DNA of 35,468 bases. Source: a virus. Below, piece after piece: positions 8,233-31,129 of the stretch. The first letter of the stretch is position 1. Each line of letters starts with the position of its first letter. The stretch lies in UHGV virus genome UHGV-0114740, one strand, 5' to 3'. A program made the position numbers and the translations under genes. The notes beneath the pieces are model-generated. The model did no database searches. It saw nothing but the letters and a program-made list of their open reading frames with translations, and had not been told where the DNA came from.

Positions 8233-9471
8233 ACGGTAAATCTGGCTTCTGGCGCATTACAAAAAAACCAGAACGGCGCGGATATTCCTGATAAGGATCG
8301 CTTCCTGAGTAACATTAATGTTTACAGCAAAGGCGAGGTGGATAAGAAAAAAGGAATGCGGCAGTACGCATTTAATGCGCCGTCTAATGCAGTTGGTGGA
8401 AAGTGGTATCCAGTTATTTTCCGGCGTTCCACAGGCAGCACTGGCGAGCTGGCTTCCAGAGTGATTATAACGACCACATCTGCCAGTGGTGATTACGCAA
8501 TGAATAACTGCGAATTCAATGGAATGGTAATGCCTGGTGGCTGGACTGATCGTGGTTCATATGCGGCAGGTTATTTTTCGACGTATCAGACTAATGAGCG
8601 CGCAATCCATTCCATTGTAACAAGCCTTAAAGAAGATGATGTATGCAGCGTTTTTTACGTTGAAGGCAGGGCTTTTCCTGTGCGAGTTTTTGCCGAAGAA
8701 GGGCTAACGGTTATTGTTCCAACTCAGGATTATACCGTCGGTCAAACAACATATAAGTGGGGAGCAACTAATCCCGCGACAGAAAGCACGAACGCACAAG
8801 CCATTCTGGATTTTAACAATGGGCGAGGGTTTTATTGTTCTCACTCAATATTCGGTATTAATGCCATTTTTAGCGGAAATCTGGGGATTGGAACGGCTAA
8901 TGCCCTGGGGGGAAATTCAATAGTTTTAGGAGATAACGATACTGGGTTTAAACAAAATGGTGATGGGGTGCTGGATGCTTATGCTAATGGTGTGCATGTA
9001 TTCCGCTTTAGAAATGGCTCAGCAATATCATTAAAGGGTATTCAGGCTGGGGAAAGTAAGTTATTCACACTTTCAAGTGCAAATACCGCTGCCCGTAATG
9101 CATCATTTAACTTGTGGGGAAATTCGTCAAGACCAACTGTTGCAGAGCTTGGTGATGATTCAGGCTGGCATTTCTATAGTCAGCGAAATACAGATAACTC
9201 GGTGACATTTGCTGTAAACGGTCAGATACAACCAAGCAACTGGGGTAACATTGATTCCAGATATGTGAAAGATGTTCGGCTTGGCTCACAGCAATATTAT
9301 GGTGTGAACAACTGGCAAACATGGAACTTCCAGTGCCCTTCAGGTCATGTATTGTCTGGTATAAATGTTCAGGATACAGGTTCCAACTCCGCCGATAATA
9401 TTGCGGGTGTTTATTACAGACCCGTTCAAAAGTATATAAATGGCACATGGTATAATGTAGCGAGCGTTTAA
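8224..9471 (+). CDS. Alternative tail-fibre C-terminal cassette (silent in this orientation)
   Basis: Begins [21 protein letters not shown], the same junction peptide found inside H ([21 protein letters not shown]), then diverges; ends ...[11 protein letters not shown] versus H ...INGTWYNAGSI. No independent start expected. Confidence 0.75.
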
Positions 9472-25658: not shown

Positions 25659-25970
25659 TCATTCAGGAAATAATGCCCGGATATTCCCTGCCATCTGACT
25701 GGTTATCTGTGCGGTTGGTACTGGCTGTGACACGGGGCGTTCTGTCCTGGTTTGTGTCACCGATAACGCCTCATCGTCAGCCCATGCAGCCAGTCGGTAA
25801 GCCTCTGCCGGATTCATTTTCAGAAGTGCCAGCCCGGCCAAAAAAGCCACGCGTTGGCCGCTTTTGCGGGCTTCTGGTGTAAGGCTGTCCAGCCAGGCAC
25901 ATGCTTCGCCTTCGTTCTTGACGGCGGCGGGCTTCAGATAGAAACTTATCCGTCTGGTTGGTGTCGTCAT
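25659..25970 (-). CDS. parR: ParR/StbB-like partition adaptor protein
   Basis: Start at internal Met (MTTPTRRISFYLKPA...) with SD AAGGAG, 4 nt after the parM stop. RRISFYLKP...LDSLTP..ARKSGQRVAFLAGLALL parallels plasmid R1 ParR (RRTIAFKLNP...LDSIPQGERSRLNRAALTAGLALY). Confidence 0.7.
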   Translation of the reverse strand: MTTPTRRISFYLKPAAVKNEGEACAWLDSLTPEARKSGQRVAFLAGLALLKMNPAEAYRLAAWADDEALSVTQTRTERPVSQPVPTAQITSQMAGNIRALFPE

Positions 25971-25974
25971 TGGT

Positions 25975-26934
25975 TTACTCCTTGTCCATTGCGTACAGCC
26001 CATTAACCAGAGCAAACTGTGGCACCCCGTCCGCGATGAAAGTCGCATTAACTCCGCAGGCTTCGCGGATAGCGGGTGCCACAATCTCCGCCCCTCCACC
26101 GACAACCATCACCCGCCCGTAACCCGAAAAACCCGCCAGCGCGCGGATCACGCGTTGTTTCAGTGTTTCTTCCTTTTCACGAATAACCGCCATCAGGCTG
26201 TCGTAATGCGCGTCATTGTGGATGTGCTGGCGCAGCCAGGCTTCATCATGGCGATGTTCGATAATGGTATTGGCGATGTGGTGACTGGTACGCATACCGT
26301 TAGTGGCCATCACCGACAGTACGGCATCGGCCATCAGGGAAACGCCTACGTGTGGATCGCAAAACACCTGGCTGATACCTGCCAGTTGTCCCTGAACCTT
26401 TGCCACATCCAGCGTGGTTCCGCCTAAATCCACAATCAGCAGGGATTCAAACGGACTCATGTCAGCCAGTGCTTTAAAGCCAGCCGGAATGGATTCAGGC
26501 ATAACCCGTACGTTACGGATAGTGAATGCTTCGCCGTTCTGGTACTCCACCGGGCGCATGACGTTCGCTTTTTTGCGGTTGATGTTGGCCATGTCCGGCT
26601 GTGCGTTTGTGTCGAAATACTCGCTCAGTGGTAGGGTGACAACCACATCCACTTCCTGTGGTGTGATGCCTGATTTGACCAGTGCGTGATGAATGGCAAC
26701 GACATTCACATCGCTGTACTGGTACTGCGTGTCGGTCGTCTGGACAAAGCGATCGCTGACCGGATCAAAGCCATAGCGCACGCCATCAAGCATGTAGTTC
26801 GCGGGCTGCGTGCCACCGAACGGCGCAGACCATTCCGACTTGAAGCTGTTCGGGCTGATGGCGTTGCGGCGTTCGCCGTTCTCAGTCCATGCCAGCTTGA
26901 TGTTGGTGGAGCCGTCGTCGATACAAATTTTCAT
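25975..26934 (-). CDS. parM: ParM/StbA-like actin-family partition ATPase
   Basis: MKICIDDGSTNIKLAW, ISPNSFKSEW, YSDVNVVAIHHAL, VMPESIPAG, LLIVDLGGTTLD, VMVVGGGAE, LVNGLY all parallel plasmid R1 ParM blocks. Confidence 0.85.
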   Translation of the reverse strand: MKICIDDGSTNIKLAWTENGERRNAISPNSFKSEWSAPFGGTQPANYMLDGVRYGFDPVSDRFVQTTDTQYQYSDVNVVAIHHALVKSGITPQEVDVVVTLPLSEYFDTNAQPDMANINRKKANVMRPVEYQNGEAFTIRNVRVMPESIPAGFKALADMSPFESLLIVDLGGTTLDVAKVQGQLAGISQVFCDPHVGVSLMADAVLSVMATNGMRTSHHIANTIIEHRHDEAWLRQHIHNDAHYDSLMAVIREKEETLKQRVIRALAGFSGYGRVMVVGGGAEIVAPAIREACGVNATFIADGVPQFALVNGLYAMDKE

Positions 26935-26965: not shown

Positions 26966-27074
26966 TTTACGGGATTCTGAAATCCCGCTTTTGCCTGTTT
27001 TGTGCGCACTTCATGTTTTATGGCGCGTTTTTTGCTCATTTACGGGATTTGTGAATCCCGTTTCTGTCTGTTTT
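26966..27074. repeat. Two ~36-bp direct repeats, each with a 7-bp-stem palindrome (CGGGATT n4 AATCCCG), upstream of parM and abutting the A stop codon; parC-like centromere or operator candidate
   Basis: R1 26966..27001 TTTACGGGATTCTGAAATCCCGCTTTTGCCTGTTTT; R2 27039..27074 TTTACGGGATTTGTGAATCCCGTTTCTGTCTGTTTT; 73 bp apart. Confidence 0.5.
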
Positions 27075-29832
27075 TGTTTCCACTGGTCAGTCCACCCCGC
27101 AGCAGGTCTGCTTTGCGGCGGGCGCGTTCAGTGGTTTCACTGATTCTCTGTTCGTGCTCTGCGTCGCGGATGGCGCGCAGCATGTCAGAAAGCACGGTAA
27201 CGGGTGTTTTCATGGTGTTCTGGTCCTGCTGAAGTGTGAATGCCAGGCGTGCGGCGGCTTCGGGGTCTGATGCCCCCAGCTGTTCCAGGTAGCTGACGAC
27301 CGGGTTATGGCGGATCTCCGTGCTGCTTACGCCGTGGTTACGGCTCAGGCGCTGCCAGAGCTGCGTGATTCGGCTGTCCGGGCGGGTATCCGGTTTGCGT
27401 ACAATTTCAAATCCCTGCGGTGCAATGATGCTGCCGTCAACGTACAGACTGCCGCCCCGTAACAGGTGCTGCATCTGCTGTTCACCAATATGCAGGCCGA
27501 GAGATTCAGCAGACTCCCGCCATTCTTTAGCGAGTAACTCGTGGTTATCAGGCAAAGGCTGTGGCTGTTTGCGGCTCTGTGTCCAGTTCTGCATTTCATC
27601 GCTGCTGTTTTTTGCCTGTTTGTCACGAAGCGAACACATCAGCGCCCGGCGTTCGTGCCGTTTCAGTGAATGCATCCATTCGTTCACTTCAACGCCGTCA
27701 GGGAGCTGCGGCCACGGTGCTGGCCGTTCTTCCGGCTGTTCTGTCCCGTTGTTGTCTGTTTCCTGTACACGGGGACAGTTATTGCCACGAGTCCAAGGGG
27801 CGGCAGGGCCGCCCTGAAGGTCAAAACCATTTTCGCTGGCGCTGTCTTTCGCTTCCGGTTTGCGTCTTACCAGCTTCCAGTTATCCGGATGCGTGCACAC
27901 ACGGGAGGATTCCCCGATGAGTGGTGACCAGATCCCGTAAATCTGTACGCTCTGTTCGCCGTAATCGTTCAGCTCATCGGCGAGGTCGTAGGCGGTGCGA
28001 ATCAGGTAGTCTTTGCGTGGAACAAGTACGCCGCCCTGTTTCTCTATGTAGGTGGCAAAACATCCGGCATCAGCGGCGGCAAGAACCGCATCCATTGCGT
28101 CATCCTTCAGCCGTTGCGGGCCTTCCGGGTTGCGTGCCATCTGGCTGGCAAGGCGGCGCAGTTCACGCCATACCTGGCGGGAGGGGATGCCAAAGAACTG
28201 GAACTGGCGGACCCGGTGAAGGCGCGCCCAGCCGATGGCGCGTTCCACGCTCTCGGCCATTGATTTTCCGGTTTCGTGGTCAACGCGTGGTTTGCCCGTT
28301 TTCGGGTCGATGCCATCCACGGCGCGGCTGTCCAGGTTTTTTCCGATGTAGGTCGCGATATAGCTGGTTGGTGTGCCTTTTGAGCCGTCTACGTACTCCG
28401 CCTTAAAGCGCGGAGTAATATCATCGCCCAGCTCGTGACGATCTTCCTGAATGGCAATATCGCGGGCGTGGGACACAATGGTGTCGATTTCTTCCGGATG
28501 GGCAAAGACCATCATATGCCAGTGCACGGTGCCGTCATGGTGAGGCTCCACCGTGCGGATGCCATACCAGCGCAGGCCGTCGCGGTTCAGTTTCTTGCGG
28601 ACCGCCGCAAAAAACGTGTTAACCAGGTAATCGCTGGAGTCGCGCATGGTGGCCCCGTTCCATTTGGGATTCGGATGACCGTTCTCTGTTGTGGCGTGGT
28701 ATTTTGACGGGCAGGTGACAGTCAGAAACACCGCTTTGTCGCCACGGGCTTCGGCCAGAAGTTCCAGCCCCTTCATGGTGGCCATCATTTCTGCCTTACG
28801 GTGAACCGGGTTACTTACTCCCGCGTAATACACTGTCTCGAGATCAATCGTGAACCCATCTTCGTTTTCCAGCATGAAACTTTTCAGGAAATCGCGTGTT
28901 TTCTCGCGCTGTGCGCGAAACTCGCTTAACGCGTCCTGGCTCAGATAGGGCGATGTCTTTCTGGAAACCAGACAGGCGGCGCGGAGTTGTTCTTCTCTCC
29001 ACTCGCAACGTAACAGCCACAGTTTGCGTTTCCACCATTCCGCACAGGTCAGGCGTAGGATTGCGCCCGGCAGCAGTTCCGTGTCCGGTTCGTTCCTCCG
29101 GTCTTTGTCTGTTGTCAGTGCGTCATAATGTGGAGGCATGGCGTGCAGGTGTAACGCCATGCGGGCCAGCATCTGATACGCCTTCAGGGTTACATCCATG
29201 GTCAGCTCGCCATCGGTCGCGCCAAAGCCATTGCAGAGTTTTTCGAAGGTGCTGCTGAACATCGCCGCCGTCATGGTGGCCAGCGTCTGTATCTGGTGCT
29301 TGTTGAGCTGCGGCAGGTAAAGCAAATCGTCCAGGCGTTCGCGTCCGGCAAGGGCGCGATAACCCCGTGTCAGCCAGCGGTGGTCGGTGCGGTCCAGACG
29401 TTCGAATATTTTGCGCAGGGTTCCGCGCGCGTAGCGTTCAGCCTGCCAGCTCTTTTTGCCTTTCTGGCGATCGGCTTCCTGTTTTTTGCGCAGGAAGGAG
29501 AGGTGGCGAATAAGCGGATCGCGCAGATAGGACGGCAGCAGGCGCAGCGAGGCCATGGCTTCATCCACCGCGCCGCGTGCCTGTTTTCTGGCGTCTCCTG
29601 CCAGTGTGATGGTTTTGTCCTGTTTTTCCTGTGCGTCCAGGCTTTTATTAATCAGGTTGCCCAGCGGCGTGGCGGAGAACGCCGCATCAGCCATTTCCTG
29701 GCGGCGCTCGTTCTCTGCCCGGTAAGCATCCAGCCAGGAGGAAAGCGCGGATTCAGGAGCGGGGATCCCCGTTCCTTCACGCCCCACTGCGTGGCGCGGT
29801 TGTTGCCAGTCCCTGATGTACTCTGCCGTCAT
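27040..29832 (-). CDS. A: Replication initiation protein A (rolling-circle HUH endonuclease)
   Basis: 930 aa; contains HWHMMVF (HUH-like) and SYIATYIGK (paired catalytic Tyr) as in P2 gpA; appears longer than I remember P2 A to be. Confidence 0.85.
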   Translation of the reverse strand: MTAEYIRDWQQPRHAVGREGTGIPAPESALSSWLDAYRAENERRQEMADAAFSATPLGNLINKSLDAQEKQDKTITLAGDARKQARGAVDEAMASLRLLPSYLRDPLIRHLSFLRKKQEADRQKGKKSWQAERYARGTLRKIFERLDRTDHRWLTRGYRALAGRERLDDLLYLPQLNKHQIQTLATMTAAMFSSTFEKLCNGFGATDGELTMDVTLKAYQMLARMALHLHAMPPHYDALTTDKDRRNEPDTELLPGAILRLTCAEWWKRKLWLLRCEWREEQLRAACLVSRKTSPYLSQDALSEFRAQREKTRDFLKSFMLENEDGFTIDLETVYYAGVSNPVHRKAEMMATMKGLELLAEARGDKAVFLTVTCPSKYHATTENGHPNPKWNGATMRDSSDYLVNTFFAAVRKKLNRDGLRWYGIRTVEPHHDGTVHWHMMVFAHPEEIDTIVSHARDIAIQEDRHELGDDITPRFKAEYVDGSKGTPTSYIATYIGKNLDSRAVDGIDPKTGKPRVDHETGKSMAESVERAIGWARLHRVRQFQFFGIPSRQVWRELRRLASQMARNPEGPQRLKDDAMDAVLAAADAGCFATYIEKQGGVLVPRKDYLIRTAYDLADELNDYGEQSVQIYGIWSPLIGESSRVCTHPDNWKLVRRKPEAKDSASENGFDLQGGPAAPWTRGNNCPRVQETDNNGTEQPEERPAPWPQLPDGVEVNEWMHSLKRHERRALMCSLRDKQAKNSSDEMQNWTQSRKQPQPLPDNHELLAKEWRESAESLGLHIGEQQMQHLLRGGSLYVDGSIIAPQGFEIVRKPDTRPDSRITQLWQRLSRNHGVSSTEIRHNPVVSYLEQLGASDPEAAARLAFTLQQDQNTMKTPVTVLSDMLRAIRDAEHEQRISETTERARRKADLLRGGLTSGNKNRQKRDSQIP

Positions 29833-29838
29833 AGTGAT

Positions 29839-30204
29839 TTACTTCGTCATGCCATTCAGGGTGTCGCGGCAGACTGTAGCCAGCCGCTGAATTTCCAGCA
29901 CGGTGTCTTCTGTGTCGGCATGGCGATGTGTGATGCGGATGCTGTCGGCAATCACATCGACGATTGCAGAGGATGGGCGCTGGTAAATGCCAATAACGGA
30001 CGGGGTGCCACCTTCAATGCGGTAAAGCCTGTAATTTCCCTCGTGGCTGTCAATCATGTAGCGACCATCAATAACAATCTTTCCGTCAGCGAGCTGCGGT
30101 ACAGGCAGGGATTTCTGGTACATGTCATAACGATCACGCACGCGAGCGGCAAGATCACGTTCTGTGTTGAGCAGGTATTCAAGAAAGTCGTTGGCGAGAA
30201 TCAT
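29839..30204 (-). CDS. Hypothetical early protein (121 aa)
   Basis: ORF immediately upstream of A in the same operon; no recognisable motif. Confidence 0.5.
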   Translation of the reverse strand: MILANDFLEYLLNTERDLAARVRDRYDMYQKSLPVPQLADGKIVIDGRYMIDSHEGNYRLYRIEGGTPSVIGIYQRPSSAIVDVIADSIRITHRHADTEDTVLEIQRLATVCRDTLNGMTK

Positions 30205-30276
30205 TGCGGCAATCCTCTTGTTACAGATGTGCGAAGGCCTCCCGCCGCAAGGTGCAGGAAAGGCCCGGAACAGGAA

Positions 30277-30507
30277 TTAATGGAGTTTGTTTTGCTGCTG
30301 GATGAGCTGTTGAAGCTCGTGCAGATCATCCGCCAGATAGCTGAAAACAGAGGCGGAATAAATGTTTGATAGTGCGTGACTGCGCTCATGCAGCATATTG
30401 ATGTGCATGATTTGCGCGACGCGTGATGCGCGGGAAAGTCTGCGGTTGATTTCAGTCTGGATGTGACGACGCTCCGCGATAGCGCGGTGCTGTTTGCGGT
30501 CTGCCAT
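30277..30507 (-). CDS. Hypothetical small basic protein (76 aa)
   Basis: ATG with SD AAGAGG; basic helical composition; overlaps a longer low-complexity track ORF that I reject. Confidence 0.45.
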   Translation of the reverse strand: MADRKQHRAIAERRHIQTEINRRLSRASRVAQIMHINMLHERSHALSNIYSASVFSYLADDLHELQQLIQQQNKLH

Positions 30508-30829
30508 GGTGTGGCCTCTTTGCTCGGTGATAGAAATAACTCACCATCCAGAGTTGAGAATCTCGGGGTGGCGAGACGTACAGGGTTCTCAACACCGGAG
30601 AGCAAAGAATCCGGCCCGACCGAAGTCGGCCCCGTACGCCCCGCCATAATTCTGACGCGAAAAAGACGTGGCAATACAGTACGCACAAAAAAACCGCTTG
30701 CGCGGTTATGCGCTTTGCTCTGTATCGGGTTGAGAATCCCGGCACCCGTTTTATGAGGTGCAGCGGAAATGTAACCTGACCGATTGAGGCATGGCAAGCG
30801 GTTTTTTTGTGTGTGCATGTTCTGGTTTC

Positions 30830-31129
30830 TTACTGGTTCAGAAAAAAATCAAAAACGTTATCGATGCGTTGCAGCAGCTCTTGCTGCATTGCTTCCGGCG
30901 TTTCCGGTTCGCCAGGTGCCCCCAGCGTTGCGCAGAAATCAGCGATTTCATGATGGAGCGTCAGGCGAATGGCAGGAGCCGTGGTTCTGGCGTGCTCCAG
31001 CTCATCCAGCAGTGCCAGCACAGCAGACGGCGAGAGCATTGCGCGAAATGCCAGTAATTTTTGAGGCGTTGCCATTCGTTGCAGGGCAAATGCCAGTTCG
31101 CGTAGCTTCTGGTGGTTGATGGTGCTCAT
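30830..31129 (-). CDS. Hypothetical early protein (99 aa)
   Basis: ORF with ATGA overlap to the upstream gene; no recognised family. Confidence 0.5.
   Translation of the reverse strand: MSTINHQKLRELAFALQRMATPQKLLAFRAMLSPSAVLALLDELEHARTTAPAIRLTLHHEIADFCATLGAPGEPETPEAMQQELLQRIDNVFDFFLNQ

Follow-up and report, generated by a model that had tools for sequence, protein, structure and literature searches.

The window analysed here was the UHGV virus genome UHGV-0114740 (35,468 nucleotides, 35.5 kb), and the element under study was a 320-bp region at positions 30,508 to 30,829, which is identified with good confidence as an antisense-RNA immunity cassette of the IsrK-C4 kind, carried by a P88-like P2-family prophage within its early (cox...A) operon. 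The window was found to contain a complete P2-family prophage of E. coli, with an integrase, a C-type helix-turn-helix repressor and Cox encoded at the right end, and was also found to encode P2-type terminase, portal, capsid, scaffold, sheath, tape-measure and fibre proteins. The nearest phages were P88 and other Xuanwuvirus members (Peduoviridae), with 92-94% identity over 1 kb around the region. The region lies on the minus strand within the early operon, which extends from cox to the replication gene A, and the minus-strand order was a MarR-type winged-helix protein (88 amino acids) followed by an Ead/Ea22-like protein, the 320-bp region, a 76-amino-acid open reading frame (ORF), a 121-amino-acid ORF, gpA and ParM/StbB-like genes. 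An earlier description made without database searches (the sequence-only reading) had placed the region just upstream of an A operon, which is imprecise, as the element lies inside the early operon and two genes upstream of gene A. The features of the cassette were as follows.

30794..30814, minus strand: distal arm of a 21-nt inverted repeat (ACACACAAAAAAACCGCUUGC in the RNA), from repeat search and folding
30768..30797, minus strand: predicted sigma-70 promoter of IsrK (TTGCCA, 18-nt spacer, TACATT), from a consensus scan
30687..30761, minus strand: IsrK-like RNA (seqA of P4), Rfam RF01394, 63.1 bits against a cut-off of 50
30564..30651, minus strand: C4 (CI-type) antisense RNA, Rfam RF01695, 78.5 bits against a cut-off of 45
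30553..30562, minus strand: b2, the downstream target of b′ (GAUUCUCAAC in the RNA), from motif scan and co-variation
30515..30525, minus strand: a2, the downstream target of a′ (GAGCAAAGA, 30525-30517), with the Shine-Dalgarno sequence, from repeat search, sequence and co-variation
30277..30507, minus strand: 76-amino-acid protein homologous to P4 epsilon ('derepression' protein), Pfam PF25738 Derepression, 32.5 bits (cut-off 27)
30201..30818, minus strand: 205-codon frame, which starts 12 nt past the stop of the upstream gene and runs across IsrK with its promoter, C4 and the epsilon-like gene

The IsrK match was found to cover the whole model (positions 1-77 of 77), and the RNA was found to contain a 5′ hairpin followed by a b1 hairpin, a single-stranded a1 site and an intrinsic terminator. 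The b1 site (GAUUCUCAAC, 30738-30729) was present in the loop of the second hairpin, followed by the presence of a1 (AGAGCAAAG, 30721-30713) in the single-stranded stretch ahead of the terminator. The terminator was found to contain a stem-loop at 30707-30692 and a U7 run (terminator scan), and no other canonical intrinsic terminator was found on the minus strand between cox and A. The predicted promoter was found to end 7 nt before position 1 of the IsrK model, with a start expected at about 30761, and its sequence was invariant across the six-phage alignment; the promoter and the terminator were both recognised by consensus scan only. A second promoter-like site (TTGCCA-17-AATTAT, 30674..30646, minus strand) was found just before C4 and was conserved, but it is probably no promoter, because its start would truncate the closing stem of C4 and AATTATGG belongs to the conserved C4 flank.

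The C4 match was also found to cover the whole model (positions 1-87 of 87) and to start 35 nt downstream of IsrK. The C4 fold contained a long closing stem around two hairpins, and among its 27 pairs none was broken and 16 were compensatory, with changes on both sides, in an alignment of 16 diverse homologues (RNAalifold). The 3′ flank CCACC was conserved, and the mature RNA of the C4 family is freed from a longer transcript by RNase P followed by 3′ trimming. The a′ element (CUUUGCUCU, 30607-30599) was present in the loop of the second inner hairpin, followed by the presence of b′ (GUUGAGAACC, 30593-30584) in a single-stranded junction. The sequence-only reading had offered a small RNA as one explanation of the region and had named a covariance-model search and a comparison of relatives for compensatory changes as checks on it; the two Rfam families above their curated cut-offs, together with the compensatory pairs of C4, bear that explanation out.

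The a′ and b′ elements were each found to be complementary to one site in IsrK (a1 and b1) and to one downstream site (a2 and b2). The a2 site was found to overlap the Shine-Dalgarno sequence AAGAGG (30520-30515), 7 nt ahead of the ATG at 30507, which starts the 76-amino-acid gene. This gene is the first after C4, at a distance of 57 nt, and its product was 32% identical to P4 epsilon (E 6e-9). The P4 epsilon protein is an anti-repressor that inactivates the C repressor of P2. By analogy, the epsilon-like gene is probably the first gene under C4 control, with its ribosome-binding site covered by a2.

The repeats described earlier were re-examined against this layout. The motif GTTGAGAAYC was found in exactly three copies in the window against 0.02 expected, and three copies were reached in none of 100 shuffles. 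The copies were present at 30553-30562 (plus strand), 30584-30593 (minus strand) and 30729-30738 (plus strand); the first two had been placed at 30552-30561 and 30588-30597, which is off by 1 and 4 nt, and the third had been placed exactly, in the loop of a CGGG...CCCG hairpin. The 15-mer AAAAAAACCGCTTGC was found at 30687-30701 (plus strand) with its reverse complement at 30794-30808, where none was expected, and the inverted repeat is real and reaches 21 nt with 95% complementarity (30681-30701 against 30794-30814); its earlier coordinates were slightly off, the deviations of the features overall being 1-4 nt. A further complementary set, absent from the earlier description, was composed of CTTTGCTC at 30518-30525 and 30713-30720 against GAGCAAAG at 30600-30608. 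All of these repeat elements make sense solely on the minus strand, which is the direction of the early operon.

The region was found to be 86% identical among six Xuanwuvirus genomes against 92-94% for its flanks, and the differences were concentrated in the six a and b sites. The six genomes represented four types, in which a1, a′ and a2 changed jointly, likewise b1, b′ and b2, and the rest was conserved. The invariant C4 hairpin, used to scan IMG/VR, gave 120 loci, most of them with an epsilon-like gene and gpA downstream and a few of them P4-like satellites; two more IMG/VR scans used other C4 cores. Among all the loci with the same C4 hairpin core 28 a′/b′ combinations were found. By lineage classification, 114 loci were P88-like and contained 21 a′/b′ types (13 a′ and 6 b′ sequences, reassorted), and 78 loci were P4-like satellites and contained 13 types. 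Across the 114 P88-like loci the targets always changed along with the antisense loops. Perfect pairing runs had means of 8.6, 9.1, 7.3 and 7.3 nt in cognate combinations, whereas non-cognate ones reached 4.2-4.6 nt; overall, cognate runs were 7-10 nt long and non-cognate runs about 4.4 nt. The commonest a′/b′ type was that of the window, and CUUGUGUAG / CUGCGAA is an example of another natural type.

An array of operators bound by a phage regulator, such as the neighbouring MarR-type winged-helix protein, had been suggested earlier for the same repeats. A 10-mer and a 9-mer that each occur three times in 220 bp, beside the gene of a DNA-binding protein, would suit such an array, and repeats bound by a single protein would likewise co-vary. 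The copies were found, however, as one antisense and two sense elements at fixed spots of known RNA structures, namely as antisense/target pairs in an RNA hairpin loop and a single-stranded junction that co-vary as complements. In one specificity type (L009) pairing is possible only with a G.U wobble, which in DNA would be a mismatch, and RNA pairing is therefore favoured over DNA recognition. The two motif sets were found to reassort independently (13 a′ and 6 b′) while the flanking protein genes were about 93% identical, and homologous elements act as RNA by experiment in P4 and Gifsy-1 (PMC4825925). The operator array is thus extremely improbable. An origin-associated element had also been proposed, and no feature in the region was found to point to an origin.

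The P88-like and the P4-like satellite loci were found to have no a′ or b′ sequence in common (21 against 13 types). Some satellites were found to carry the identical 23-nt C4 hairpin core despite their different a′ and b′ sequences. The b′ sequence GUGGAAA of P88 was found to be the exact complement of UUUCCAC, a common b′ sequence of satellites. In one IMG/VR locus (L029, 1195-2052 of IMGVR_UViG_2825488710_000003) three C4 genes were found in about 900 nt, each with different a′/b′ loops; an IsrK match preceded the second and the third C4, and the scan gave none for the first. This element seems to carry a C4 array of multiple specificities. Another contig (L023) was found to contain two separate IsrK/C4 cassettes of different lineages, at 266-463 and 8633-8720, about 8 kb apart.

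The C4 antisense RNA and IsrK as its decoy or target probably gate the anti-repressor and the replication gene, as judged from the related systems. By analogy with P1, P4 and N15, a C-independent internal promoter would make IsrK in a lysogen, followed by C4 through read-through and processing; C4 would pair with b2 and a2, occlude the ribosome-binding site of the epsilon-like gene and block its translation, and the blocked translation would lead to Rho-dependent polarity, with transcription ending before orf121 and A. The second target copy in IsrK would either aid C4-dependent termination in cis, as in P4, or titrate C4 in trans and activate, as in Gifsy-1, and the sequence cannot choose between the cis-target and the trans-decoy roles. 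The a′/b′ types would act as immunity specificities, and a superinfecting relative of another type could express its anti-repressor in the lysogen, by which the diversification of the types would be explained.

Several points speak against this reading of the cassette. The direction of regulation, which may be repression or else activation by IsrK, is a prediction, and so are the RNA ends and the promoter. The c4-a1b1 motif (RF03163) scored 15.9 bits against a cut-off of 46.7, with 44.1 bits for P4 itself, and the upstream target region is taken as a divergent c4-a1b1 variant in which the a1 and b1 sites are present and which is better described by IsrK. No kil-like gene was found after C4, unlike in P4, and the action of the epsilon-like protein on the phage's own C repressor is putative, being modelled on P4.

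The statement of the sequence-only reading that the region holds no credible ORF held for the plus strand, where ORFs of 97, 51, 111 and 88 amino acids were found to have no family matches and are regarded as spurious because they are antisense to the conserved RNA structures. It did not hold for the minus strand, where the 205-codon frame crosses the region and stays open in relatives. This frame was found to be out of frame with the epsilon-like gene and to end in ATGA on the start of orf121. It was open in 85 of the 87 unique P88-like sequences and held 3 stop triplets where the other two frames held 67 and 135 (1 against 31 and 45 in the variable segments), although these counts come from related sequences and not from independent events and the openness is partly inherited. 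The length variants of 294 or 297 nt preserved the frame, 70 of 84 sequences retained the ATGA junction, and 71 of 84 had an in-frame ATG 17-20 nt before the distal arm despite differing upstream genes. In P4 an equivalent frame with three methionines and 197-199 codons was found to start upstream of the internal promoter and to cross both RNAs in the same register; we take this P4 frame to be eta. Forti et al. (J Bacteriol, 1999) reportedly defined kil and eta of P4, and translation of eta reportedly makes the P4 transcripts from the upstream promoter insensitive to immunity. As proteins, the 205-codon product and P4 Eta were not significantly similar (E 0.08), and they were common only in frame and position. 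The conservation of the frame suggests that it may be kept open so that ribosomes run through the cassette, as a positional equivalent of P4 eta.

The openness and the stop depletion of this frame would also be expected if the region were mainly protein-coding, for a 205-amino-acid Ash-like protein or 'transcriptional regulator', with the repeats incidental. The frame was found to match Pfam Phage_ASH (weak) and a PHROG 'regulator' family (stronger), and a coding sequence (CDS) is annotated there in NC_049391 and PV340564. The matches, however, covered residues 15-105, which are exactly the IsrK-C4 nucleotides, and they are therefore read as RNA conservation and not as a regulator protein. The same bases matched two covariance models above cut-off with 16 compensatory pairs, the hypervariable sites changed as complementary triplets and not as conservative codon changes, and the similarity to P4 Eta was insignificant as given above. 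A mainly coding role is thus very unlikely, and a translated frame of the P4 eta kind fits the RNA explanation and is no true rival to it. Matches to Phage_ASH and the PHROG 'transcriptional regulator' were also obtained from translated IsrK-C4 regions of P4 (8168-8584), mEp460 (gp41) and N15 (gene 32), and records were found to name CDSs over the RNA genes as 'cI gene product', 'cA secondary immunity repressor' or 'transcriptional regulator'. Translated RNA genes or eta-like frames are the probable basis of these protein families and names.

The long inverted repeat had been described as a terminator-like hairpin on either strand. The arm at 30687-30707 was found to be a minus-strand intrinsic terminator, at the 3′ end of IsrK, and the distal arm was found to be no terminator. 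The proximal arm (30701..30681) was made up of the 3′ half and the U-run of the IsrK terminator, together with a few bases beyond it. The distal arm (30814..30794) was found at -50..-32 of the predicted IsrK promoter, overlapping its A-tract and -35 element, and therefore it is present only in transcripts that start upstream of this promoter; within the 205-codon frame it covers codons 2-8 and the first base of codon 9. When the RNA was folded from 30830, a long-range helix replaced the terminator (minimum energy, -56 kcal/mol, z-score -5.4), and when it was folded from 30761, without the distal arm, the terminator formed. The arm-terminator pairing of 15-18 bp was found in all P88-like loci, with z-scores of -4.9 to -6.7 against shuffles. 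In L023 (z-score -3.1) and in P4-like satellites (-90..-71, z-score about -3) the counterparts were weaker and differed in sequence and position, and the P4-like satellite L300 was found to contain one compensatory A>G / T>C pair in the arm pairing. Judged from these folds, the distal arm is likely to act as an antiterminator that would let transcripts of the early promoter reach gene A.

A number of results count against the antiterminator. No significant counterpart of the arm was found in the mEp460 and N15 lineages, and that of P4 itself was weak (z-score -0.7). The long inverted repeat is thus not universal to IsrK loci, being absent in the mEp460 and N15 lineages. The distal arm was invariant in the P88-like lineage and so gave no co-variation within it, and its overlap with promoter elements could explain its conservation. 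The A/T-run lengths of the two arms gave no convincing co-variation.

The overlap leads to a further explanation, in which the long repeat has no RNA function, the arm is kept as an UP-like A-tract and -35 element and the terminator match is a relic of an inverted duplication. The position of the arm at -50..-32, where A7 occupies -46..-40 and TTGCCA forms the -35 element, agrees with this, as do the start of the conserved module exactly at the arm in spite of the differing upstream genes and the lineages of mEp460 and N15 without a significant counterpart. It leaves eight matched bases outside the A/T tract and the -35 element unaccounted for, and the z-scores of the arm-terminator pairing in P88-like loci and the counterparts with other stems in L023 and the P4-like satellites, with the compensatory pair of L300, argue for RNA pairing. 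Gene A also lies behind this terminator, and no N-like antiterminator is known from P2-type phages. The relic explanation is a serious possibility, although it is not the favoured one. It is unlikely that the helix serves instead as an RNase III processing site that splits the upstream messenger RNA from the cassette. A 21-bp helix is of suitable length for RNase III, and this helix of 95% complementarity was found to close IsrK in the minimum-energy fold of the upstream-initiated RNA, but it was only 15 bp in most relatives, which is short for RNase III.

With the distal arm as an antiterminator, transcripts from the far-upstream early promoter may escape termination by the pairing of the arm with the 3′ half of the IsrK terminator, and the same transcripts may be translated straight through IsrK and C4 in the 205-codon frame, like P4 eta; both steps are put forward less firmly than the C4 gate. 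Combined with that gate, they would mean that P2-family 'helper-type' phages (Xuanwuvirus) have built a satellite-type RNA immunity and an epsilon anti-repressor gene into their own replication operon with two modes, in which the RNA from the internal promoter is gated by C4 and the RNA from the early promoter is blind to the immunity RNA through the antiterminator arm and the eta-like frame. This two-mode scheme is tentative and its correctness somewhat doubtful. If it were true, the reassorting types (21 or more) would record an arms race among helpers, and of helpers against satellites, over derepression. If the bypass features hold, they would also give a testable account of the promoter-dependent sensitivity of one operon to an immunity RNA, a question first raised for P4.

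The cassette was compared with the known systems. IsrK has been equated with seqA and C4 with CI, and P1, P7 and N15 have been named in this connection (PMC3632133); the c4 and c4-a1b1 motifs have been defined (PMC2864571); and IsrK, STnc1160 and anrP have been described in Gifsy-1 and compared with P4 seqA/CI, with Hfq binding of IsrK and trans-activation of a downstream messenger RNA reported (PMC4825925).

The closest order was found in P4, where IsrK (8692-8615) is followed by C4 (8507-8420), kil, epsilon, orf151 and the alpha replication gene. Both contained an IsrK-like RNA, a C4-type RNA, a target at the ribosome-binding site, an epsilon-family gene, a small ORF and a replication gene in the same order, and the a1b1/a′b′/a2b2 layout of the window corresponds to seqA/seqB/seqC in P4. 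A long frame that starts ahead of the internal promoter and passes through the two RNAs in the same register is also common to both, and, as in P4, two transcript classes are predicted here, from an internal and an upstream promoter. In contrast, the host of the cassette here is a complete P2-family phage and P4 is a satellite; gpA is present in place of the alpha primase; kil is absent; the gap from C4 to epsilon was 57 nt against about 245 nt in P4 and the spacer from IsrK to C4 was 35 nt against 107 nt; and the long frame runs over the epsilon-like gene in another register, whereas in P4 it ends as kil. No similarity was found between orf121 and P4 orf151, and no alpha homologue was found in the P88-like loci examined. 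The window does not classify as a P4-like satellite, for which an alpha primase-helicase, sid/delta/psu and a lack of structural genes would be expected, as it was found to contain gpA and structural genes.

In the immI operon of P1 and P7 (c4, a1/b1, a2/b2, icd, ant) the antisense RNA likewise comes from the transcript that it regulates, with two recognition elements, two target pairs, a downstream target over the ribosome-binding site and an anti-repressor as the product. The specificity of P1 and P7 differs through matched changes in the loops and targets, and related phages differ in the same way here. The cassette of the window differs in its epsilon-family protein in place of Icd/Ant, in its position within a replication operon and in the number of its specificity types, which is 21 or more where the classic pair has two.

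Gifsy-1 was found to share IsrK followed by a C4-type RNA (STnc1160, orf45) that overlaps a translated frame and by an anti-repressor (anrP), together with a terminator that is partly read through and a middle hairpin of IsrK complementary to the downstream RNA (PMC4825925). It differs as a lambdoid Salmonella prophage with an anti-repressor of a different family, and the short IsrK was shown to activate translation in trans there, a role that is putative for the IsrK of the window. In N15 (CA RNA, 'cA', antA-C) IsrK and C4 were both found above cut-off upstream of an anti-repressor, and the b′ sequence GUUGAGAA was common to N15 and the window, whereas N15 is a linear plasmid-prophage with other downstream genes.

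The cassette was found in 1178 of 5426 complete E. coli genomes. No RNA was annotated at the cassette in any of the 12 RefSeq records listed, and several phage records label the region as a CDS for a 'hypothetical protein' or 'transcriptional regulator'; with the cassette recognised, these records can be corrected. No description of an IsrK-C4 cassette in P2-like, P88 or Xuanwuvirus phages was found in the searchable literature. Both RNAs belong to described families and their logic is that of P1, P4, N15 and Gifsy-1, and it is the P2-family (Xuanwuvirus) setting that appears to be new. The cassette suggests that P2-family lysogeny control has a second, RNA-based layer in the form of a P1/P4-type anti-repressor gate, and its 21 or more natural antisense/target pairs, which are orthogonal and share a constant scaffold, offer a resource for studying or engineering RNA-RNA specificity.

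The neighbouring genes of the cassette were as follows.

30830-31129, minus strand: Ead/Ea22-like protein of 99 amino acids (sub-threshold match), directly upstream of the cassette
29839..30204, minus strand: 121-amino-acid protein (phrog_3237), function unassigned, apparently translationally coupled to the 205-codon frame
27040..29832, minus strand: replication initiator gpA of 930 amino acids (PF05840 Phage_GPA, 436 bits), the last essential gene downstream of the cassette
25659-26934, minus strand: ParM (StbA) and a plasmid-stability StbB-like gene, directly downstream of gpA and also annotated in P88
24487-25077, minus strand: another Ead/Ea22-like gene

In P88 and Shae_phiSM other genes were found to replace the 99-amino-acid Ead/Ea22-like gene or to be inserted there, and the left edge of the cassette is therefore regarded as a recombination junction. 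The presence of the ParM/StbB-like genes hints that plasmid-like maintenance is open to this prophage family.

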